From sequence record NC_022968.1: a stretch of 64,000 nt of DNA. One strand, given 5' to 3'. A program made the translations under genes and the position numbers. Positions within the stretch are counted from its first letter, which is position 1. Each line of letters begins with the position of its first letter. The notes beneath the pieces were generated by a model. It searched no databases and was not told the DNA's origin. It was given only the letters and a program-made list of their open reading frames with translations. The DNA comes from Escherichia phage 4MG. Below are positions 1 to 29,118 of the stretch, piece by piece.

Positions 1-331
1 CACGGAGAGAAGGGTCATTAACAGACCATCCCCCTGCACCAACACCCCCGGTGCTCTCCGGGGTTGAGTTGGCAGGAACCAGCTTAGGATAAGAACCCGT
101 CCACTGGTACACCTTGTTAGTTGTGCGGTCAATTACCTGGTCCTTAGCGGAGGTCAGCGTACCACCATCCTGGAATGAGAACATACGCATGACACCGAAA
201 CGAGAGAACAGGCTGGACCAAGTGGATTTGCGTGTAGCATCCGACTGGTCAACAACCAAGAAATCACCCTCGAAAGAATCCGTCGCGGTCGGAAGGTCCG
301 AAATTTTGACGGTAGGTAATAGATCTGCCAT
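1..331 (-). CDS. tail fiber-associated protein, 5' part only (CDS runs off window start)
   Basis: ATG at 331 with RBS AGAGGA; N-terminus MADLLPTVKISDLPTA...DQSDATRK is paralogous to N-terminus of 3130..3804 product; not in ORF track because stop lies outside window. Confidence 0.45.
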   Translation of the reverse strand, partial: MADLLPTVKISDLPTATDSFEGDFLVVDQSDATRKSTWSSLFSRFGVMRMFSFQDGGTLTSAKDQVIDRTTNKVYQWTGSYPKLVPANSTPESTGGVGAGGWSVNDPSLR

Positions 332-340
332 TAATTCCTC

Positions 341-3130
341 TTATCTTGTAAGGTTTCTGTACATAGCATACAGCCCAAATCCTCGTAACAGTTCTCCGGC
401 GTGGAAGCCAAAGAACATCCCGTTATCAGTATCTGCACGAGGAGCAACAGACCAGCTACCGTTCATCGGATGATTGGCAGTCAGAATGATGTAGTTCTCC
501 TGGATCAGACTGAAACAACGCTCTGCCACAATGTCGATGTTAGGAATACGAGTACGCATCCCAGCCATACCAAGGATGGAACAACCACCCATGAACAGCG
601 CCGACATATGGCTTGTAAAGTCATCCTCTGGTGCCAGAACAGTACCATCCGGGTTAAAGATGGTTGGTGTACGGCCCTCGTTGTTATCCTGGAACCATTT
701 CAGATAGTCAACCCAGTTCTTAGCCACTGTAAACAGCTTGCTAGGAATGGCTTCTCCACGTTGAGAGAGTTCATAGATACAACGACAAACACAGAAGAAC
801 GCACGAGCCTCATATCCGTCCCAAGCCTTCTCGTTCCAGTGTTTCATGGTGAAGGTATTTGGTTCCCCGTACTTACGGGCATCCCAGCGATCCCAGACAA
901 AGGCCTGAGCCATTGGTCCTGGCATAATAGGATGGAATGTGTTATAGAACCACATCTGGGAGTCATACAGGAAATCAATAGTGCTGTTCAATCTTGTCCA
1001 GTCAATGTTTTGACCTTTGAAGCAATACAGCGTAGGATATTGATACCCTGGGTATGGAAGACCACGCCAACCATCATAGAGCGCCGTGTTAGGGTCACTG
1101 ATGTTGGAGAACGGGATCAGTCCCGGAGTGTAGTACAGGCTGTTAAGTTTGTAGTCGATAATTGTACAATCACCAAGCTTCGCATTGTATGCATTATCAC
1201 CAGAAACCGTGATACGGAAGTACATGGTATAGTCGTCACCACCAGTGGAGGTGTACAACTCTGGGACAGCATTGATACAATACCAGTCGATCTTCGCACT
1301 AACACCGTCAACAGGGTCTGTGTCTGGTGCCAAGTTAATCTGTTTAAGATTATGGAGACTGATTTGGTTAGGCTTAGGATCTGTTTCTGGATGGTCTGGT
1401 TGGTAGCTGCTCAGAACGAAGTTGGAAGGACTCAACTGAAGTGTTGTCCATTCTCCGTTGGTTGCAGGAACCATAGCCCACCATCTCCACAGATTGTCAT
1501 CGGTGATTGTGATGTTAAAATTGTCAGCATAGGAACGGTATGTGAATGCTGAAAGGTCAGCAGTTTCAGTATCTGTCAGCCAGAAACCGATTGTGCAACC
1601 ACCATCCGCATCGGTCACAAGCGTACATGCTTGGTCATTGATTCGCCCAAGAATACCAGTCTGGTACTGGAAGTCAATAACTGTGTTTGATCCCCAATCT
1701 ACAACGATACGTGGATCAGCTACAATGTAGCTACCACCACCGGGAGGTGTTAATCTCACAAAGTTGGACAGAGGGATATCCATAGAAACGATGGAGTCTG
1801 TACCGCGTGGAAGGCCACAACGATAGGTCACCCTACCAGTTTCTGATTTGGTCTTGTTAAGGTCTAGTTCTGGTCTGAACAACAACCCATTCCCTGCTTC
1901 ATCCTTTCCTGAGAACTGGACACGCAGTTTTGAAGTGCCGTCAACACGGAACCAAATAGCCTGCTGTTCAAGAGTTGTCTGTGCTGCCACGTTCTGACGA
2001 ATACCAATATATCCTTCTGCGTCACGAGAATACTGTGGAACGGCTGTTGAAGGATAGGAGTAGTCATAGCTGATCCCATCAGTGAACGGGATTGTAGCGA
2101 ACGTAGATTTACGGAAGAACTTATCGAAACGGTCAATGTCTGAATAGTTATCACAAACAATTAATGAAGACTGCCAGCAAAGCCAGTATTTTCTTTCCCC
2201 GGTGATCTGATACATAACATAGTTCGCATCACACCACCATGTTTCTGCGTCAGAAGCATTGTCCTGGAAACCCATTTCAATCGGTACGTTAACAGGTCGG
2301 TTGTGCCACATGGTGTTTCTACCCATCAGGTATCCACCGTGTTCAACAGGATTACAGGTCGCATAGTTGAACTTGTAATTTCCTGTGATTGTGGTATTCT
2401 TTAACTGAACTGTACCCCATTCAGCCTCAGGGAACCCTTCAGCGAGGATATTACCATCCCAGTCAACCTTACGACCAAGACGATCAATGATCCAGTCAAC
2501 ATCCCACTGAGAGCCATACTCATCCCAGTTGGTGCTTCCGTCAGGGTTCTCTTTGTAGACTGTTGCGTTAACAGAGTTCCAACCAAGGTTTCCGTCGAAG
2601 GCAAACCAAGCCTTGTCCAGATATTCCCCCCAGTGAGGCGCTCCGTGCGGGATCAACGTTTTACCATTTGTCCACGTCATAACGCTACCCTTGAAACCAC
2701 CGTGGGTTGGGTATCCATCATCTGTCAATGGGTAGTGGGCGAGGCGTGGCTCTTTTCCGTTAATGATCCAGTTAGGACGATAAACAGCAGGAGGATCTGG
2801 GATTGGCTGACCAGCAAAGAACCAGTCAATATATGCCTGCCAGTATGCCTCTGCAAGTTCCAAGTATTTTGGATCGTTGGATGCCAGGTAAGCATAAGCG
2901 CACCCAAGGATCAGCACTGACTGACCCTCGGTAGTTGCGTCACCATTCGGTTGAGCTTCCTGTGCTGTCCAGTTGATGAAGTGGCGGTTGTTAGCCAAAA
3001 CATTTTGCAAGTTCAGAATGTAGTGCTGAACCGTAGGATCGATTGTCTCTCCGGTGTTTCTCTGAAGAAACTGAATGTGTCCGTCGATCAACTGAAACAC
3101 ATTATCAATGTTGTGGCTTAACTTTGCCAT
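341..3130 (-). CDS. tail fiber / tailspike protein (929 aa), possible carbohydrate-active C-terminal domain
   Basis: long ORF in tail module next to baseplate genes; size and W/Y/G-rich composition typical of receptor-binding proteins; enzymatic role is inference. Confidence 0.6.
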   Translation of the reverse strand: MAKLSHNIDNVFQLIDGHIQFLQRNTGETIDPTVQHYILNLQNVLANNRHFINWTAQEAQPNGDATTEGQSVLILGCAYAYLASNDPKYLELAEAYWQAYIDWFFAGQPIPDPPAVYRPNWIINGKEPRLAHYPLTDDGYPTHGGFKGSVMTWTNGKTLIPHGAPHWGEYLDKAWFAFDGNLGWNSVNATVYKENPDGSTNWDEYGSQWDVDWIIDRLGRKVDWDGNILAEGFPEAEWGTVQLKNTTITGNYKFNYATCNPVEHGGYLMGRNTMWHNRPVNVPIEMGFQDNASDAETWWCDANYVMYQITGERKYWLCWQSSLIVCDNYSDIDRFDKFFRKSTFATIPFTDGISYDYSYPSTAVPQYSRDAEGYIGIRQNVAAQTTLEQQAIWFRVDGTSKLRVQFSGKDEAGNGLLFRPELDLNKTKSETGRVTYRCGLPRGTDSIVSMDIPLSNFVRLTPPGGGSYIVADPRIVVDWGSNTVIDFQYQTGILGRINDQACTLVTDADGGCTIGFWLTDTETADLSAFTYRSYADNFNITITDDNLWRWWAMVPATNGEWTTLQLSPSNFVLSSYQPDHPETDPKPNQISLHNLKQINLAPDTDPVDGVSAKIDWYCINAVPELYTSTGGDDYTMYFRITVSGDNAYNAKLGDCTIIDYKLNSLYYTPGLIPFSNISDPNTALYDGWRGLPYPGYQYPTLYCFKGQNIDWTRLNSTIDFLYDSQMWFYNTFHPIMPGPMAQAFVWDRWDARKYGEPNTFTMKHWNEKAWDGYEARAFFCVCRCIYELSQRGEAIPSKLFTVAKNWVDYLKWFQDNNEGRTPTIFNPDGTVLAPEDDFTSHMSALFMGGCSILGMAGMRTRIPNIDIVAERCFSLIQENYIILTANHPMNGSWSVAPRADTDNGMFFGFHAGELLRGFGLYAMYRNLTR

Positions 3131-3804
3131 TACTCAACTCCTGCCATAATGAGGGAGCCGAACCATGTGTTCCCTCCGTCATAAGTGACGAACTGGAAGA
3201 TGTCTCGTACCCCGGTTTTATATGAAAGAACTGGTTCTCGTCCATAGTTCCACTTGATGTTGCTAGGCCATGAAACAAGGTTGGCCCCTGTCCCCTGAGT
3301 TAAAGATAACTGGAAGGTTTGGGAAATTCCCTGAGCGGTAGATGGGTTGGTGATACCGACCACACACTGCCCTGATGTCAGGTTAGCAAGGAAGGTATCT
3401 CCAAGTGTCAGGTTGCAGGTTGCAGTCCCCTGGACGTTACCCAGATTAACAACCTTACCTGTAGAACTTCCACCACCGCTTGCACCAAACTCCTGCCAAG
3501 CGTTAGAACTGATACCCCCGGTTGTCGCCGGGGATGAAGACATTGGAATTGTCTTTGGATAAGTACCGTTCCATGTGTAATATTTACCATCAGTTGCGAA
3601 GAAGGCGAGATCCTTTTTGGATTCAAGATATCCTCCCTCAGCAAAGAAAACCACTCTTGTCAAGCTCATCTTGGAAACGATTGTGTCCAAAGAGGCCTTT
3701 CTGGTAGTATCTGACTGATCAGTAACAACAAAATCGCCACCTGCAACGGTGACGGCAGTTGGAAGGTCAGAGACCTTCACTGTTGGAAATGCAACATCTG
3801 CCAT
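3130..3804 (-). CDS. tail fiber-associated protein (224 aa)
   Basis: start overlaps stop of upstream gene; N-terminal motif FPTVKVSDLPTA..GDFVVTDQSD shared with partial CDS at 1..331. Confidence 0.5.
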   Translation of the reverse strand: MADVAFPTVKVSDLPTAVTVAGGDFVVTDQSDTTRKASLDTIVSKMSLTRVVFFAEGGYLESKKDLAFFATDGKYYTWNGTYPKTIPMSSSPATTGGISSNAWQEFGASGGGSSTGKVVNLGNVQGTATCNLTLGDTFLANLTSGQCVVGITNPSTAQGISQTFQLSLTQGTGANLVSWPSNIKWNYGREPVLSYKTGVRDIFQFVTYDGGNTWFGSLIMAGVE

Positions 3805-3814
3805 TATTTACCCC

Positions 3815-4432
3815 TTAGTGGTTACGGTTGATGGACTTACCATCTTCGGTGGTGATGACATTACTCTTGTCATCCATCAGGCTACCGACAGGAATTGGGT
3901 TATCAATATCTGTACCAGCCCAGGTGTTCCACCATGTAGCATCGCCAGTGCGAGGCAGACGGAAGTTGATCAGATAGTAGAGCTTGTTAGCCCACGTAAT
4001 CCAACCATCATCGTCACAAAGAACCGTTGCACCTTCATCAGGGATTGGGTAATAATACTCATCCTGACCAACGAAAGCAAGTCGTACAACCTCTTGTTCT
4101 TTGGTGGTCACTTCGAAGAAGGCCTGATAACTACGTGTGGTCCGATCCATTGAAGAGTGGAACGAAGTGATCTCAAGCACATCAGGCTCAAGTCGGGTAA
4201 CTTCCTTGATCTTATTGTCAAGGACTGTTTTCATTACCTTCTTGCTCAGATATGTTCGGTATGGGAAACCAAAGGTTTCATCAAAATACCAGTTGCCAGC
4301 CCAGATATTAAAACGTAGCCACAATCTCTGACGGAGGCTTGTCTGGTTTGACTCAATGATCTGGAGACCCGTGGAGACATCAAGGTCTCCAGTAACAGGG
4401 TCCATAAGAAGGTCAGAATAAAGAGTAGCCAT
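3815..4432 (-). CDS. putative baseplate protein (205 aa)
   Basis: ORF in tight minus-strand operon between tape measure and fibers; function by position only. Confidence 0.4.
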   Translation of the reverse strand: MATLYSDLLMDPVTGDLDVSTGLQIIESNQTSLRQRLWLRFNIWAGNWYFDETFGFPYRTYLSKKVMKTVLDNKIKEVTRLEPDVLEITSFHSSMDRTTRSYQAFFEVTTKEQEVVRLAFVGQDEYYYPIPDEGATVLCDDDGWITWANKLYYLINFRLPRTGDATWWNTWAGTDIDNPIPVGSLMDDKSNVITTEDGKSINRNH

Positions 4433-4441
4433 TTATTCCCC

Positions 4442-5143
4442 TTATGCGTTTGGTGCGGCGGTGTTGCTCTGACCTGAGCCGTCCGTCCAAGTGTAGTGGT
4501 GGGTGTGGCGCATGAAGTAATCATAAAAGTCATTCATGTTGACACCACGGGCGGTGATCAGGTTTCCATCAGGTGTGATCTTTGCCCCGTTCATTTCAAT
4601 ATTCCCGTCAGTTTTCGCTGTCAAGGTTGCTGCTCCGTTAGTGAACTGCATCTGACCAGACTTATCCACCTTGAAAGTACCAACAGGCCCTGTTAAAGTA
4701 AAAGTCCCATCCGGGGTCATCGAGAAGTGAACCGTGTCATTCCACAACTCGACGTTATCAGGGTCGATTGTCATGGCGTTCCCATCACTATGCACACCAA
4801 TGATTGACCAACCAGGAAATAGTCCATGAGTTGTCGTATCGTTAGCATCACCCTCATTACGTTCGGAGAATGAAAGTCCAACCACGTCACCAGGCTTCAC
4901 AGGAAGCGTCAGGCGAGCTTTTCCACCGTTAGCTGAAGGCATGGAAAGGGGGACATCAAAAACCGCAGGATAAGCGTCTACGGTGCCATCATCGAAGTTT
5001 GTAGATGCAAGGGGTTGTACGGTTGCAGAAGGGATGCTGTAATCAACATCAACAACCCTTGCTCTTAGCCCGGTGTGGATATCACGAGCTTGACGGGCGA
5101 ACCACTGGTTCAAGGCAGCATCCATACGTTGAATTGATGCCAT
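4442..5143 (-). CDS. putative baseplate spike/tail protein (233 aa)
   Basis: ORF in baseplate block; C-terminal His-rich motif HTHHYTWTDG; assignment by position. Confidence 0.4.
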   Translation of the reverse strand: MASIQRMDAALNQWFARQARDIHTGLRARVVDVDYSIPSATVQPLASTNFDDGTVDAYPAVFDVPLSMPSANGGKARLTLPVKPGDVVGLSFSERNEGDANDTTTHGLFPGWSIIGVHSDGNAMTIDPDNVELWNDTVHFSMTPDGTFTLTGPVGTFKVDKSGQMQFTNGAATLTAKTDGNIEMNGAKITPDGNLITARGVNMNDFYDYFMRHTHHYTWTDGSGQSNTAAPNA

Positions 5144-6132
5144 TATTCCTCCACAATGCCACCACGGGTTTCTGCAAGTCCGATCTCAGACACCCAATCG
5201 CCACCTTCAAGTTGGCCTTTGTGAGTAAGATAAACTACCTTGTAGAAGCCTGTGTATTTCTGGCTTTTTAGATAAATTGTGCTTTCTGGGATGATCGCAC
5301 CGTTAAGTTCTGTAACAACAACAAGACCTGCGTCCTCTTTGATTTCAGCACGACTTGGACCTTTATTGGTCTTCGGCTTACTTTTAGACTTCTTCTTTTT
5401 CTCAAGGCGGCGTTTTGCAGGCTCTGGGTTTTGCGGGGTTGGTGAATCATGCATCCCAGATTCAGCACTGATCTCAAACACCGCATTGCGGAATCTCTTG
5501 CCCTGTGTAGTCCAGTACACAGCACCGTCCTGAACACTAAAGGTTGATCCGGTGTTTTTGGCAAGGCGTTCGAGATTGTTTGCAGCGTTACCAGTAAATG
5601 CCATAGACTGCTGAAGGGTCTGGTTACCGAACTTAACCACCTTACCAATAGGTAGTTTAAGGTCTGAAACAAGGTCATTAAGAACCGTATCCAGCGGTGT
5701 CCCCTTCTTGTAAGAACGGGCAGTCTTTGCTGTCATGATGTTGGTTGTTGCATCACCCAAGATCATTTTTGTTTGACGAGTATGACCATCCCACTTATCC
5801 TGAACAAACTCTACAGTCCCGGAGAAGATTGTCTGGTTTTCACCATCGAACCCTGCCTCCAGAACAATAGCAATCGACTCACGCTGGTTAGCATCAAGAT
5901 AGCTTACCGTTTCATCAGACAGGTTGTAAAGGGTGACATACCCTTTGTTAGGGTCTTTTGAGTTATCTTTCTTCACCTCGAACTCGATATTTGCTGCCCC
6001 TGTTTCGTTACTGACAACATAGGCATCCTTCGTGTTCTGGTTGGTGTAGTCAGAAATGTTGGTTGGCTTTTGCCCGATGTATACGGGCTTGCCAATAGTA
6101 AGTCTGAATGTTCGTGTTCTGTAAGAAGGCAT
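5143..6132 (-). CDS. putative baseplate protein (329 aa)
   Basis: ORF with start overlapping upstream stop; position downstream of tape measure. Confidence 0.4.
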   Translation of the reverse strand: MPSYRTRTFRLTIGKPVYIGQKPTNISDYTNQNTKDAYVVSNETGAANIEFEVKKDNSKDPNKGYVTLYNLSDETVSYLDANQRESIAIVLEAGFDGENQTIFSGTVEFVQDKWDGHTRQTKMILGDATTNIMTAKTARSYKKGTPLDTVLNDLVSDLKLPIGKVVKFGNQTLQQSMAFTGNAANNLERLAKNTGSTFSVQDGAVYWTTQGKRFRNAVFEISAESGMHDSPTPQNPEPAKRRLEKKKKSKSKPKTNKGPSRAEIKEDAGLVVVTELNGAIIPESTIYLKSQKYTGFYKVVYLTHKGQLEGGDWVSEIGLAETRGGIVEE

Positions 6133-6134
6133 GA

Positions 6135-6485
6135 TTACTCCTCGTCAGTTAACTCTTCGTCAGGAGATGAATAAAGGAGTTGCAAGTCAGACAAGAATCC
6201 GATATTGTATCTACCAACACGTTTGGTTGACTGTGTAAAAGAAAAGACACGCAGTTGTCCGGATGGGATGTTTTCCAAGTATTTAAACGGAGCAAAGATG
6301 TCAAAAATGGTTGTAAGTTTAAAAGAGATTGTTGGTGTTTGACCAACATCACCAAAGGAAACGAGCCAAGACTCATCTCGCTCGTTCCATTGGAAACGCA
6401 TTTCATAGGTTTGACTGTCCAGAACCACACGCATGGTCTGGTCAGCGAAGCCGTCAATGTCCCATGAGAAAGTAATAGCTGACAT
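6135..6485 (-). CDS. hypothetical tail protein (116 aa)
   Basis: compact ORF, stop/start overlap with neighbours in tail operon. Confidence 0.35.
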   Translation of the reverse strand: MSAITFSWDIDGFADQTMRVVLDSQTYEMRFQWNERDESWLVSFGDVGQTPTISFKLTTIFDIFAPFKYLENIPSGQLRVFSFTQSTKRVGRYNIGFLSDLQLLYSSPDEELTDEE

Positions 6486-7357
6486 TAGTTCCCCACTGCT
6501 TTTTTATAGTCCATGATTGAGCCGTCAGTACCACGAATTTTACCATCTGGGGTAATAGTACCAATGACCTGATCTTGTTTTGTGAAGTTACCTGAATCCA
6601 TAGCCTCAGCAATTTTTTGCCACCCATCTTTATTTGGGCCAGCAAACTTGGTGCGTCGGGCAGTTACTTCAACTTCATTATCTGTTGCGGAAGATTGTTG
6701 AGAACCTTTCTGCTTGGTCTTCCCACCAGACTTTTTAGGATCTGAGTAGACTGTCGCGAGGGCTGTTTTACCAAGGGTGAATGTACGGAATTCCGTAAAC
6801 TCAAGCTGGAATACCAGCGCCGCACCGTCAGAGTTGCTACGTGCAGCCTCCATTGAGGTGAGGATATAGTTCTCAATAATTTTGTCTTCGGTAACCAAAG
6901 TCACAATTTGACGATCAGTAATCAGACGTTCCAAGATCTCCAGAGCTTTTTCTGGACGACGAGAAGCAACCGGGTTCTGGTCATCAGTATCTTTGTCAAG
7001 GTAGTTGTTTTCGATAAGGTAAACAGGAGATGAGTTCACTCTGGCACTGAAGGAGAATTTACCATCTTCAATAACACCGTGGTCACTAAATTTTACCTTT
7101 TCTTCAACAGCATATGATGTCTTGTCAACTGTGCGTGTGTAAGAATGTTGTTCAACAACGTCGAAAATGATCGCGAGGTCGTTGGTGTAGTTTTTGTCCT
7201 TGAGTTCTACGTTTCTACCGCCGTAGTTAAGACCGCTGGCGAAGAGCGTATATTGCACCTCACCGCTGGCTTCCTGGGCTGTGTTGACCTTTTTCTCGAC
7301 GTTAGCCGTGGCCTTGCCCTGTTGCGGTTTGGACTGGTTGTTGGATACAAATGCCAT
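6485..7357 (-). CDS. putative tail/baseplate protein (290 aa)
   Basis: ATG at 7357 preceded by RBS GGGAGGA; directly downstream of tape measure gene and terminator hairpin. Confidence 0.4.
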   Translation of the reverse strand: MAFVSNNQSKPQQGKATANVEKKVNTAQEASGEVQYTLFASGLNYGGRNVELKDKNYTNDLAIIFDVVEQHSYTRTVDKTSYAVEEKVKFSDHGVIEDGKFSFSARVNSSPVYLIENNYLDKDTDDQNPVASRRPEKALEILERLITDRQIVTLVTEDKIIENYILTSMEAARSNSDGAALVFQLEFTEFRTFTLGKTALATVYSDPKKSGGKTKQKGSQQSSATDNEVEVTARRTKFAGPNKDGWQKIAEAMDSGNFTKQDQVIGTITPDGKIRGTDGSIMDYKKAVGN

Positions 7358-7412
7358 GAGTCCTCCCATTATACATGTTACGATTTTATCATAAATCTTG
7401 AGATAAAACAAT

Positions 7413-7436
7413 AAAAAAGGGGCCGAAGCCCCTTTA
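7413..7436. terminator. bidirectional hairpin terminator
   Basis: A-run, GGGGC-cgaa-GCCCC, T-run; just downstream of tape measure stop. Confidence 0.5.
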
Positions 7437-7438
7437 AA

Positions 7439-9832
7439 TTATTGAGGAACACCAAGGATTAGGTTGATGTTACCCATGTTCGCAGCTTCAATCTGCTGGT
7501 CGATCATGTTCTTCATTTCGCCTGCGTCGATTTTGATCGTGATCTCACCGCTCACAGGTTCAGTTGGAATCACCATCGGAGGTGTTGCAGCCCCGGCTGG
7601 TCCAGGAACCATTCCATTCTGGTTCAGATAATCAAGTCTGCGCTGGTCAGTCATTGATCTCTGGCCTGTAATGAAGTCCCAAGCCTGTCCCATCCAAGAG
7701 TTTTTCTTCAGGTTACCACCTGCCGTGGTTTCAGTTCCATAAGTCTTATCGCTGTATTCCTGAGCAGAGTCGAAGACGTAATCTCCCAACAGCATACTCT
7801 CACCAGCGATCAGTGCAAACAAACCACCCTTACGTGCAAGCTTATTGCCAAGGCTTAATCCCTTGCCTTTACCCTTCTTCTTGCCCGGACCATCCTCTTC
7901 ACCACCGCCACCATTTCCAACACCAAAGATATCAGAGATAACCTTCAGTGCAGTGGAGAGACCAGCGATCTTAGTCAGGATGTTAAAGACACGAATAAGT
8001 GCAGAAGCGAAGAACAGAGCACCTACGCCCCAGCCTACCCATTTCCATGCAGAGGAAAGCTCTTCACCGTTCTTACGGAAGATCGGGATATAACGCTCCA
8101 TGATGCCTTGGATCAGGACAAAGGTGTTGTAGACAGTATAGACCATCTCCATAAACCCGGCTGTGAATCCAGCAAAGAATTGACCAAGATTTTGCGCAAG
8201 GGGACCGTTGGAGTCAAGAATTTTTGCGAGTTCGTTAAACGCGCTAGTTAATTCTTCACCAAAGCCACTCTGGAATACCTTGTTCTGGAAGTCCATCCAT
8301 GTTAATGTCAGACGCTGCATTGCAACACGGTTACCTTGCAGGGCTTTCTGAAGCGCACCACCCTTGTTTGCTGCCTCTGAGTAATACTTGGCAACGAATG
8401 GCAAGATTTTCGCAGCCTTCAGTTCACCCTTCTGCATCATGTCCATCATCTTGGTTACATCAATGGTGGAATCACCAAAAGCTTCCTGCGTTGCTTTGAG
8501 GAATACCTGTAGAGAACCAGGAATACCTTCCGCAAGCTGTTGCTTAAGTTCTTCAGCCATGATCTGACCTTTACCCATCATCTGTTGGATCGCAGTAATA
8601 CCACGTTGGTATTTAACTGGGTCAACCTGGAGGGCTGTTGAATATTCAGAGAAGGACTTGAATAGCTCATCGTTTTGTGATTTACTAAGAACACCGTTAG
8701 CGGCAATAGCCATTTGGGTGTAACCCTGTGCAGCAACTTTCAGGTCAAGACCTAAACGGTAGGACTGATCACGAACAAATTTCAGACGCTTACCTGCCTC
8801 TGCGGAGTCATCAGAAACCATCAGCATGGTTGCTTCCATACCCTGGAAGAACTGACCTGTTCTTACCACGCTTGCAGCAGCGTTGAATGCACCGTATGCA
8901 GCAGTTACACTCACCAACGTGCTACGCAGGTTCTTCAGCCCATCAGTCAAGGACAGGGTGTTCATGTTTGCTTTACGAAGTCCGGTCTCCATTGCAGCAA
9001 GTTCAGCACGGAAGTTTGAAGACTTCATGGTGTTGCTGTCAAGGAATCTTTCTTTCAGGGAGTCGAAACCCTTAAGTTTGGTTGCGTAGTTGTCACCATA
9101 TTTTGCACGAAGACGTACAGAGGCGTTGGCTACAGTTGATTCTTTACCTGCAAGATAACGAGAGTAACGAAGGTCTTCTGCCTCTTGTTTCTTACGGGCT
9201 TGTTCACGAGCACGAAGTTGCTCTCTGGATGCTTTCTGCTGTTGGCGTTGAACCTGCTGTTGCATTGCACGGTTTTGACGTGCAATCAGTGCCGGATCAG
9301 ATGCAGTACCACTACCAACCATGCCTGAAGCATTCCCTGATTTAGAACGGCGAGCCAGTTCCTCTTGCAGAGCAGCTTGACGTGCAGCAGAGATAGCGGG
9401 GTTTGTACCATAACCACCACCCGTTTTTTCCATTTGACGTAGACGTGCTTTCAGTCCATTATAGTCAGCTTGGGATTCAGGTGAACGTTTGGATGTCAGT
9501 TGAGCAACAGCTTGTTTTCTACGTGCTCTCTGGATCTTGTCAATTGCTTCACGAGCACGAGCCTCTTTCTTCGCCATAGCAATGTTATGGGCTGTGGTCT
9601 TTGCTTGTTCAGCACGTTCAGTTTGTTGCAGTCTTTTGTTGACAAGGCGAGCCTGCATTGCAGAACGCTTCAATGCTGCCGCTGGGTCTGACTTGCTGGC
9701 AGAGAATGCCTTACCAGCTTTTTCCCACTCAGTTTTCAAAGACTTCACAGCTTTCATGGCACGACCGAAGGAGGTCTTGTCCACGTCCCATGTGACTTTG
9801 TTGACTGTCTGGGTTACAATAATGTTCGCCAT
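7439..9832 (-). CDS. tail tape measure protein (797 aa)
   Basis: long A/Q/K/R-rich coiled-coil protein with Gly-rich segment, located after tail tube/chaperone genes. Confidence 0.7.
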   Translation of the reverse strand: MANIIVTQTVNKVTWDVDKTSFGRAMKAVKSLKTEWEKAGKAFSASKSDPAAALKRSAMQARLVNKRLQQTERAEQAKTTAHNIAMAKKEARAREAIDKIQRARRKQAVAQLTSKRSPESQADYNGLKARLRQMEKTGGGYGTNPAISAARQAALQEELARRSKSGNASGMVGSGTASDPALIARQNRAMQQQVQRQQQKASREQLRAREQARKKQEAEDLRYSRYLAGKESTVANASVRLRAKYGDNYATKLKGFDSLKERFLDSNTMKSSNFRAELAAMETGLRKANMNTLSLTDGLKNLRSTLVSVTAAYGAFNAAASVVRTGQFFQGMEATMLMVSDDSAEAGKRLKFVRDQSYRLGLDLKVAAQGYTQMAIAANGVLSKSQNDELFKSFSEYSTALQVDPVKYQRGITAIQQMMGKGQIMAEELKQQLAEGIPGSLQVFLKATQEAFGDSTIDVTKMMDMMQKGELKAAKILPFVAKYYSEAANKGGALQKALQGNRVAMQRLTLTWMDFQNKVFQSGFGEELTSAFNELAKILDSNGPLAQNLGQFFAGFTAGFMEMVYTVYNTFVLIQGIMERYIPIFRKNGEELSSAWKWVGWGVGALFFASALIRVFNILTKIAGLSTALKVISDIFGVGNGGGGEEDGPGKKKGKGKGLSLGNKLARKGGLFALIAGESMLLGDYVFDSAQEYSDKTYGTETTAGGNLKKNSWMGQAWDFITGQRSMTDQRRLDYLNQNGMVPGPAGAATPPMVIPTEPVSGEITIKIDAGEMKNMIDQQIEAANMGNINLILGVPQ

Positions 9833-28257: not shown

Positions 28258-28266
28258 ATTGTTTGG

Positions 28267-28339
28267 TGGGACCGGGTGGACTCGAACCACCGACCATCTG
28301 CTCTTCAGGCAGGCACTCTACCAACTGAGTTACAATCCC
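28267..28339 (-). tRNA. tRNA-Phe (GAA)
   Basis: T-arm GGTGG/TTCGAGT/CCACC, anticodon loop CTGAAGA, A73, CCA encoded. Confidence 0.75.
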
Positions 28340-28349
28340 ATAAGATTGG

Positions 28350-28420
28350 TACTTCCTGGTAGAATCGAACTACCGCAACTGCCGTGTAAAGACAGGGTTC
28401 TACCATTAAACTAAGGAAGC
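28350..28420 (-). tRNA. tRNA-Val (TAC)
   Basis: T-loop TTCGATT, anticodon loop TTTACAC, CCA encoded. Confidence 0.7.
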
Positions 28421-28430
28421 ATTAAGGTGG

Positions 28431-28504
28431 TGGGCGACAGGGGACTCGAACCCCCAAAATTCGGAATCTAAATCCGACACGTATACCAATTCCATCAATC
28501 GCCC
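28431..28504 (-). tRNA. tRNA with Leu-type anticodon TAG but short (5 nt) variable arm
   Basis: 74 nt cloverleaf, anticodon stem TCGGA/TCCGA, loop TTTAGAT, A73, CCA encoded. Confidence 0.55.
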
Positions 28505-28616
28505 ATAAATGTTTGGAAGCCCATACTGTCTTCCTGATCAGCCAGAATCCTTTTCTAGCATTATCATCGGCCCTGTAGATCCTATCATTAGCCAGGGGAT
28601 CGACGCCTTAATTTGG

Positions 28617-28689
28617 TGGAGCCACTGAGAATCGAACTCAGTTCTACAAGGTGCAAGCCTGTGATTTTATCCAAATAAACTACAGCCCC
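28617..28689 (-). tRNA. tRNA-Ala (TGC)
   Basis: anticodon loop CTTGCAC; G3:U70 pair present; CCA encoded. Confidence 0.75.
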
Positions 28690-28696
28690 ATGTTGG

Positions 28697-28769
28697 TGCA
28701 AGTACAGGGATTCGAACCCCGATTCTCAGCTTCGTAAACTGATGCTCTGTCCAGTTGAACTATACCTGC
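28697..28769 (-). tRNA. tRNA-Arg (ACG)
   Basis: T-loop TTCGAAT, anticodon loop TTACGAA, CCA encoded. Confidence 0.7.
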
Positions 28770-28778
28770 TAAAATTGG

Positions 28779-28853
28779 TCGGAGCGGCAGGATTCGAACC
28801 TGCGACCCAGTGCATCCAAGGCACCCACGCTGACCAGACTGCGCTACGCTCCG
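28779..28853 (-). tRNA. tRNA-Pro (TGG)
   Basis: T-arm GCAGG/TTCGAAT/CCTGC, anticodon loop CTTGGAT, perfect acceptor pairing, CCA encoded. Confidence 0.75.
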
Positions 28854-29040
28854 AAGGTGCAGAATTTTAATTATCCCAGATACTGCAACTGGTATCGCTG
28901 GCTAGCTAATTTGATCCGCTCTGGTCACCTCGTGTGACATTGCAGACAGGCTAACCTATTCTGCAAGAGCGTATTGGGTTTGATACGTCGAACTCATTTT
29001 GAGTGCCTTCCGGCAATTTACATCAACATATCAAATTTGG

Positions 29041-29111
29041 CGGGAACTTCCTGACTCGAACAGGAGACAACCGCAGCACAAGCGGCCATTATGCCCCTTA
29101 ACTAAATTCCC
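29041..29111 (-). tRNA. tRNA with anticodon GTG (His-type) but G73 and C37, atypical
   Basis: T-arm TCCTG/actcgaa/CAGGA on plus strand, anticodon loop TTGTGCT, CCA encoded. Confidence 0.45.
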
Positions 29112-29118
29112 AATTTGG

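Follow-up and report, generated by a model that had tools for sequence, protein, structure and literature searches.

The subject of this work is the left end of a 64,000-nucleotide stretch of Escherichia phage 4MG (sequence record NC_022968.1; the whole stretch is hereafter called the window), where a partial open reading frame (ORF) and a gene for a 224-residue protein, which encode a related N-terminal block (N-block), lie on either side of a gene for a 929-residue protein. Every gene in 1..9000 is on the minus strand. The first 8 kb of the window are about 89% identical in nucleotide sequence to Cronobacter phage GAP31 (megablast), with which they are collinear, and 80-89% identical to PVP-SE1, SSE121 and other Seunavirus members of the Vequintavirinae; by this similarity, the phage is a Seunavirus of the PVP-SE1/GAP31 type. 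The gene order in GAP31 is a 205-residue sheath-initiator-like protein, GAP31_221 (223 residues), GAP31_222 (929 residues), GAP31_223 (712 residues) and the wedge proteins. GAP31_223 is annotated 'colanic acid degradation', and its PVP-SE1 counterpart gp49 is called 'putative fusion protein'. The features of the locus are given below, where the anchor matches come from a hidden Markov model (HMM) of the first part of the block.

2..331, minus strand: 5' part (110 codons) of the putative colanidase tailspike gene, an ORF from the ATG at 331 past the left end of the window; orthologues GAP31_223 and PVP-SE1 gp49
188..331, minus strand: anchor segment, copy A, tailspike residues 1-48; 52% identity to copy B over 48 residues; anchor HMM 89 bits
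23..181, minus strand: Tail_spike_N domain, copy A, tailspike residues 51-103; PF18668, 60.4 bits against a cutoff of 25
341..3130, minus strand: 929-residue phi92 gp141-like virion protein, the proposed adaptor cargo; PHROG 2871, E=0
3130..3804, minus strand: 224-residue proposed adaptor protein; PHROG 7760, E=2.9e-112; orthologues GAP31_221, rV5 gp43 and Bas54_0025
3658..3804, minus strand: anchor segment, copy B, adaptor residues 1-49; BLASTP, anchor HMM and shuffle test
3484..3648, minus strand: Tail_spike_N domain, copy B, adaptor residues 53-107; PF18668 above the curated cutoff
3133..3471, minus strand: C-terminal beta-sandwich of the adaptor, residues ~112-224, phi92 gp140-like; proposed docking platform for the 929-residue protein
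3815..4432, minus strand: 205-residue sheath initiator at the phi92 gp139 position; PHROG 120/4233; immediately upstream of the 224-residue gene

The 110 readable codons of the partial ORF translate as MADLLPTVKISDLPTATDSFEGDFLVVDQSDATRK..., and the stop codon of the 224-residue gene overlaps the ATG of the 929-residue gene at 3130 (TAATG). The 224-residue protein is related to phi92 gp140 through its C-terminal domain only.

The N-terminal block and the proteins that carry it

Aligned by BLASTP, the partial ORF and the 224-residue protein share 48/103 identical residues (47%) and 66/103 positives with one gap, at 97.4 bits (E=3e-31). The similarity covers residues 1-103 in both proteins, well past the short motif from which a common block had been proposed in the original prediction, with W, Y, F, P, D, K and R among the positions conserved. 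These results confirm that the two proteins share an N-terminal block, and the pairwise alignment suggested as a check gives a similarity that is not of low complexity, with aromatic, proline and charged positions conserved. For residues 1-48 alone, the local alignment score was 121, against 24.8 ± 5.3 (maximum 55) over 2000 shuffles. A tblastn search with both proteins against the full 64-kb window returned exactly these two copies, the next best match having E=0.92, and the same pair of block-bearing proteins was found in GAP31 by tblastn.

Judged from its sequence, the shared block consists of two parts, an anchor of about 48 residues and a Tail_spike_N (PF18668) domain. Both copies match PF18668, the TSP1/Gp66 N-terminal domain, above its gathering score of 25 bits; for the anchor no match was obtained in a Pfam scan or in a profile search of the PDB. 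In the AlphaFold2 (AF2) monomer model of the 224-residue protein, residues 1-48 have a predicted local distance difference test score (pLDDT) below 50, residues 50-108 form a confident small sandwich and residues 115-224 a confident beta-sandwich. Such a low pLDDT in a monomer model is as expected of a segment that would fold only within a complex.

The partial ORF and the start of GAP31_223 share 98% identity over 110 residues, and residues 113-708 of this orthologue match the phi92 gp150 colanidase tailspike (PDB 6E0V, E=1.8e-110), with partial WcaM matches. Because its orthologue is nearly identical at the start and matches 6E0V, copy A appears to head a real depolymerase tailspike, and by homology the partial ORF, of which the window holds residues 1-110 only, would be the N-terminal end of a colanidase tailspike like phi92 gp150. 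The proposal that this ORF begins a receptor-binding module thus holds. Degradation of colanic acid has been reported only for phi92 gp150 (cited in PMC13450770). In the GAP31 orthologue, the catalytic body aligns with gp150 over about 590 residues; the alignment with the crystallised chain, however, begins only at residue 113, and the N-block lies outside the solved part. The position of the gene also differs: in the window the colanidase occupies the slot after the 929-residue gene, whereas in phi92 and in the Phapecoctavirus ESCO13 it is found elsewhere with another N-terminus, that of ESCO13 being unrelated and at a different genomic position.

An HMM of the 47-residue anchor found exactly two proteins in each of the window, GAP31, an rV5-like locus and the phi92-like phage VEcB; six anchor sequences from these loci built the HMM, and their matches are by construction. 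With this HMM no third copy was found in the window or in the 35.8-kb GAP31 locus, and in complete Seunavirus and Vequintavirus genomes tblastn gave two places per record. The rV5-like anchor bearers are a gp43-like adaptor and a 1266-residue gp41-like fiber with an S74 chaperone, and those of VEcB are a 157-residue gp140-like protein and a 749-residue protein at the gp143 position. The VEcB pair has only the anchor in common, with no shared Tail_spike_N (tblastn), and therefore the first ~48 residues look like the critical docking element. In every lineage examined, the first anchor-bearing gene comes after the sheath-initiator gene.

The arrangement is shared with rV5 (gp43/gp42/gp41), phi92 (gp140/gp141/gp142/gp143), PVP-SE1 (gp51/gp50/gp49) and GAP31_221-223, where the sheath initiator is followed by a small protein, a protein of about 900 residues and a variable fiber or spike; in rV5-like and phi92-like loci, too, one anchor is common to the small protein and the slot protein. 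The phi92-like loci differ in that the small protein has no Tail_spike_N, only the ~48-residue anchor being shared, and in an extra N4 gp64-like gene (gp142) ahead of the slot. Neither the window nor GAP31 has this gene between the 929-residue gene and the tailspike. N4 gp64 itself matches the phi92 gp142-like VEcB gp218 (locus L003, 12344..14503; E=5.9e-33), which carries NCTSP_N and TIM-barrel_NCTSP domains.

An exhaustive search of 1.84 billion representatives gave proteins of 518-871 residues that begin with the full N-block and continue into differing bodies, among them a right-handed beta-helix. This search was used instead of a word-indexed one, in which the 110-residue N-block gave two fragments only; a single-protein scan of IMG/VR gave only three close loci. 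Colanidase, right-handed beta-helix, S74-chaperone fiber and unknown modules are thus the distal modules found behind the N-block, which supports the view, taken from sequence comparison, that it behaves as a common N-terminal attachment module to which different distal modules are fused. A common docking domain had been predicted, and this part stands insofar as one N-terminal module heads unrelated distal modules; the predicted layout of two receptor-binding proteins (RBPs) around a fiber does not, the order appearing to be an adaptor with its cargo and then a variable tailspike slot.

Two anchor-bearing proteins per genome are present in Seunavirus, rV5-like and phi92-like phages and in one uncultured lineage, and the second position is variable and sometimes empty. 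In the metagenomic Seunavirus-like contigs L011 (11461..11563) and L012 (3653..3761), the wedge gene directly follows the 929-residue gene; since no tailspike gene lies between the two, the colanidase seems to be an optional insertion. The slot is also empty in ESCO13, and the gene at the phi92 gp143 position is reported to be absent, truncated or replaced (PMC10269720).

The uncultured contig L015 (728..5614) has a sheath initiator followed by two full tailspikes (690 and 850 residues) and no adaptor/929 cassette; the two are 71% identical over their first 111 residues, the pair is independent of the anchor HMM, and its best match to cultured phages is only about 50%. The metagenomic protein P0136 (724 residues) consists of three near-identical tandem units of about 240 residues, each ending in Tail_spike_N, and is probably an artefact that arose when a repeat or a circular contig was assembled.

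The small protein and its 929-residue neighbour

The C-terminal domain (C-domain) of the 224-residue protein, searched alone, was found in 525 phage records, once per record, and the 929-residue family in 532, and the taxon counts of the two nearly coincide (Escherichia 238 vs 241, Salmonella 100 vs 103, Vibrio 60 vs 62, Erwinia 33 vs 33, Campylobacter 23 vs 23). The small gene lies directly upstream of the 929-residue homologue in 13/13 loci inspected, with ends that overlap by 1-8 nt in most. At least nine genera of myophages, podophages and jumbo phages are represented by these loci: the window, GAP31, rV5-like, phi92-like VEcB, Phapecoctavirus ESCO13, Rosemountvirus birk, Crifsvirus A24, the T7-like Aeromonas phage Atoyac13, a 157-kb Vibrio phage, the jumbo phage 121Q and three metagenomic contigs. 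In the window, the pair is recognised as a gp140-like and gp141-like cassette by a C-domain homologous to phi92 gp140, its place directly upstream of the gp141-like gene and the overlapping ends (PHROG 7760/9017 with PHROG 2871).

What precedes the C-domain in the protein depends on the phage lineage. Atoyac13 has the T7 gp17 tail-attachment domain PF03906 at this place, and in this phage the small protein and the 929-residue homologue make up the sole tail-fiber locus, before the holin gene. The C-domain is the most conserved part of the 224-residue protein, and its family-invariant columns (Q170, G171, G173, A174, N175, W179, P180, G188, R189 and P191-Y195) are kept with unrelated N-termini too, a degree of conservation that is unlike what a host-specific tip would be expected to display. 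Taken together, the sequences indicate a portable cassette, in which a lineage-specific attachment domain would be fused to a constant platform bearing the 929-residue protein. Co-occurrence, adjacency, lineage-specific attachment N-termini and the conserved C-domain lead us to read the 224-residue protein as an adaptor, and, as the N-termini of its family are lineage-specific attachment domains, its N-block would be that of the Seunavirus lineage. By the same comparisons, the 224-residue protein is probably not itself a receptor binder.

The AF2 model of the 929-residue protein (pLDDT 89, predicted template modelling score 0.84) contains helical hairpins at the N-terminus, in the middle and at the C-terminus, together with several beta-sandwiches. 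Searched with Foldseek, this model had only weak and partial counterparts among the (alpha/alpha)-toroid glycosidases and enzymes related to them (GH116, GH78, GH88, glucuronyl C5-epimerase) and among the CBM11/CBM22 jelly-rolls, and no sequence relative of the family was found in Pfam, NCBIfam or the PDB, the last by profile search. According to the model, the protein is compact, multidomain, globular and glycosidase-like and not a fiber, contrary to what had been predicted for its gene. A helix at its N-terminus (residues 8-24) is conserved. A table in PMC5380687 lists phi92 gp141 as 'glycosidase' after Schwarzer et al. 2012, and the BASEL annotation of the Bas54 and Bas59 orthologues reads 'lateral tail fiber protein with glycosidase domains'.

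About 100 residues are invariant in the 929-residue family at 43-58% identity, in phages of very different hosts and in prophage-like regions of Enterobacter, E. coli, Pseudomonas and marine bacteria, and such conservation is unusual for a host-specific depolymerase. Natural fusions are also seen among the homologues. P0107 and P0119 (1097 residues) have an N-terminal extension of about 180 residues with PF09684, a P2 gpI-type baseplate domain, and P0114, P0117, P0118, P0121 and P0124 (1425-1620 residues) have C-terminal extensions with N4 gp65-type NCTSP domains (PF23844/PF23845) or PF21722; these fusions are a hint to the proximal and distal neighbours of the protein in the virion.

The two proteins of the cassette differ in their affinities. 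Seunavirus is classified together with Vequintavirus, the rV5-like genus. The 929-residue protein of the window is 74-78% identical to its counterparts in the Stephanstirmvirinae (phi92-like, Phapecoctavirus) and only about 34% to those of Vequintavirus, whereas the N-block of the adaptor has the opposite affinity, its Tail_spike_N being common to rV5 gp43 and absent from phi92 gp140. At the level of sequence these opposite affinities suggest mosaic exchange of the cassette.

A relationship of the 929-residue or the 224-residue protein to N4 gp64/gp65/gp66 (NGR-binding/sheath/appendage) was also considered, prompted by the 'glycan deacetylase tail fiber' of the BASEL papers, and was rejected: the best full-sequence phmmer value in a four-sequence database was E=3e-4, at 6.4 bits and over two short fragments. 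The deacetylase gene of Bas54 is bas54_0034 and not the gp141-like gene.

Proposed docking at the baseplate and alternative arrangements

Taking into consideration the domain content of the block, the cassette and the variable slot, we propose that the N-block is a virion-attachment module, in which the ~48-residue anchor peptide would be followed by the Tail_spike_N beta-sandwich as a 'neck'. The N-block would fix the 224-residue adaptor at the periphery of the baseplate, where the C-terminal beta-sandwich of the adaptor would hold the translationally coupled, glycosidase-like 929-residue protein, and the phi92 gp150-type colanic-acid depolymerase tailspike would occupy the variable slot after the 929-residue gene. 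As the two anchors are homologous, both would be expected to plug into the same kind of socket, presumably near the wedge and the sheath initiator, and we prefer two equivalent sockets; each baseplate sector would then be armed with two different carbohydrate-active heads. The sequences themselves show the homology, the domain content, the co-occurrence of the cassette genes and the variability of the slot; binding of the N-block to the baseplate, binding of the adaptor to the 929-residue protein, and the number and identity of the sockets are what we infer here, and the arrangement as a whole, with its shared anchor, we hold with moderate confidence.

Published data on related phages agree with parts of this proposal. 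Mass spectrometry detected rV5 gp41, gp42 and gp43 in virions (PMC3606486). On E. coli K-12, bas54_0026, of the 929-residue family, and bas54_0027, the slot fiber, tolerate transposon insertions, and the adaptor bas54_0025 is not in the list of insertion-tolerant genes (preprint 10.1101/2025.11.20.689424); accessory receptor-binding roles for the two tolerant genes fit with this. In the 2026 cryo-electron microscopy (cryo-EM) study of phi92, the wedge (one gp145 and two gp146 per sector) is resolved together with the sheath initiator, whereas fibers I and II are not; the attachment of fiber I is placed at the top of the gp145 C-terminal domain (PMC13450770). That study does not discuss gp141 and gp142, could assign no protein to fiber II and gave no place to gp140, gp141 and gp142, and the phi92 literature examined does not assign gp140/gp141/gp142-type proteins to fibers (PMC13450770).

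Several observations weigh against the proposed arrangement. In phi92, fiber II emerges from fiber I's base rather than from a separate site on the wedge (PMC13450770), and the lineages with a single anchor gene (L011, L012 and ESCO13) are compatible with one socket as well as with two. Residues 1-48 are left unstructured in the AF2 monomer, and the profile search of the PDB found no solved structure with a recognisable anchor homologue. Co-occurrence and adjacency prove a functional cassette and not physical binding; among 120 homologues of the 929-residue protein, no adaptor-cargo fusion (C-domain with a gp141-like protein) was found.

The main rival is a single, branched socket, in which one anchor-bearing trimer would sit on the wedge and the other would dock on it, or the N-terminal peptides of both would co-assemble; the tailspike would then hang from the adaptor/929 complex, or the reverse. 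Phages with the adaptor as their only anchor bearer do exist (L011, L012, ESCO13), there is good documentation of branched RBP complexes for CBA120, G7C and Klebsiella podophages (PMC6872550, PMC13352976), and the C-domain of the adaptor weakly resembles XD/gp10-type branching domains. The known cases are nevertheless built differently. In podophages of Klebsiella (KP32, K11, KP34) and in the gp37 adaptor of SP6/K1-5, a conserved N-terminal anchor attaches a modular RBP, and another, enzymatic RBP sits on a small adaptor or branching domain (PMC6872550, PMC13352976), a layout that the Atoyac13 protein, with its gp17 N domain and adaptor C-domain, shares together with its 929-residue homologue. 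The second RBP of these systems, however, docks by a short conserved peptide on the T4gp10-like domain of the first; known secondary RBPs use such a different docking peptide and not a copy of the primary anchor. In the window, the second RBP, the tailspike, bears a full homologue, of about 105 residues, of the adaptor's own N-terminal module, and for this reason it is not a 'secondary RBP' in the sense of Latka et al. 2019. In CBA120 TSP1-4 of the Ackermannviridae and in G7C gp63.1/gp66, the segments before Tail_spike_N are not detectably homologous to the anchor, since alignments to PDB entries begin at residue ~40-54 and the anchor profile gives no match. That the anchors are homologous speaks for identical or equivalent partners, and contig L015 carries the shared block on two ordinary tailspikes with no adaptor to branch from. 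We therefore regard a branched socket as rather unlikely.

The original prediction had taken the 224-residue protein for a short receptor-binding fiber and the 929-residue protein for a fiber attached separately. Database annotations do say 'tail fiber protein', and the phi92 study puts gp140 among its fiber-like candidates (PMC13450770). For a receptor-binding tip, though, a C-domain with an invariant motif so highly conserved over phages of Escherichia, Vibrio, Aeromonas, Erwinia and Achromobacter is atypical, and this domain was never found without an adjoining member of the 929-residue family, as the 525 and 532 genomes of the cassette reflect. In the T7-like phage, moreover, the small protein alone has the gp17 tail-attachment domain, and the 929-residue protein has no recognisable attachment domain and a model that is globular and not fibrous. 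A receptor-binding role for the small protein was thus not upheld, and we consider this arrangement improbable.

Finally, the similarity could be a mere trace of the duplication or gene conversion that made a fusion gene, with no shared function at present. The tailspike is annotated 'fusion protein' in PVP-SE1, GAP31 and EC152, a label which suggests that annotators saw its chimeric nature. The two anchors of a genome (52% identical in the window, 43% in rV5, 42% in VEcB and 69% in L015) resemble each other at least as closely as do the tailspike anchors of different genera (37-40%). A neighbour-joining tree of the N-blocks does not split those of tailspikes cleanly from those of adaptors: the adaptors group at 70% bootstrap and the tailspike N-blocks are scattered, in a tree that is poorly resolved and built from short sequences. 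These sequence data are compatible with incoming depolymerase modules having repeatedly captured the adaptor N-block, or with co-evolution on a shared partner. Four or more divergent lineages, however, have kept the pair, at 39-71% identity and with conservation at the same positions, which implies purifying selection on both copies and makes a functionless trace very hard to credit.

Returning to two equivalent sockets, the proposal can be carried further. The ~48-residue anchor might be the universal plug of the rV5/PVP-SE1/phi92 group, with two equivalent sockets per sector that take either a tailspike or an adaptor; the adaptor and 929-residue pair might be portable between myo-, podo- and jumbo phages by exchange of the adaptor N-terminus; and fiber II of phi92, with the arm at the base of fiber I, might be gp140-gp141(-gp142). 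We offer this extension tentatively, as possible but doubtful. If true, the host range of the group could be re-engineered by swapping modules behind a 48-residue tag.

The rV5/PVP-SE1/phi92 group is valued because its host range is very broad, a breadth attributed to a 'Swiss army knife' of fibers and spikes. For such phages our reading offers a wiring diagram, all of it by inference: the anchor would mark the proteins that plug into the baseplate by the sheath initiator, the small protein would be an adaptor, and the next gene after the cassette would be an exchangeable tailspike slot. The anchor might also serve as a handle by which receptor-binding modules could be exchanged in therapeutic phages. 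The feature is real and functionally meaningful, and it is an ordinary case of modular phage receptor-binding proteins with anchors and adaptors; conserved N-terminal anchors with exchangeable distal modules are already well established, and the finding refines this picture and does not overturn it. Orthologues are already present in sequenced and partly characterised phages, and the added value lies in a testable assignment for the fibers of the group, including those of phi92.

Neighbouring genes and further observations in the window

A Pfam scan of the 205-residue protein at 3815..4432 gave no family match, though PF10934 (Sheath_initiator) is precomputed for orthologues of the same length, being on record for those in the metagenomic contigs L011 and L013. 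The mismatch may reflect a difference in Pfam version or threshold, or a borderline match.

At 6485..7411, also on the minus strand, the ORF finder gave a product of 308 residues from a TTG start, and the orthologues have 290 residues (GAP31_216, contig L013) or 306 (L011); the true start is probably an internal ATG that gives MAFVSNNQ... Further along the window, 25 tRNA genes are clustered at 28264..34878 on the minus strand. For one of these calls the anticodon has two bases (30264..30333, 'tRNA-???'), and a tRNA-Asn of 89 nt (29197..29285) is unusually long.

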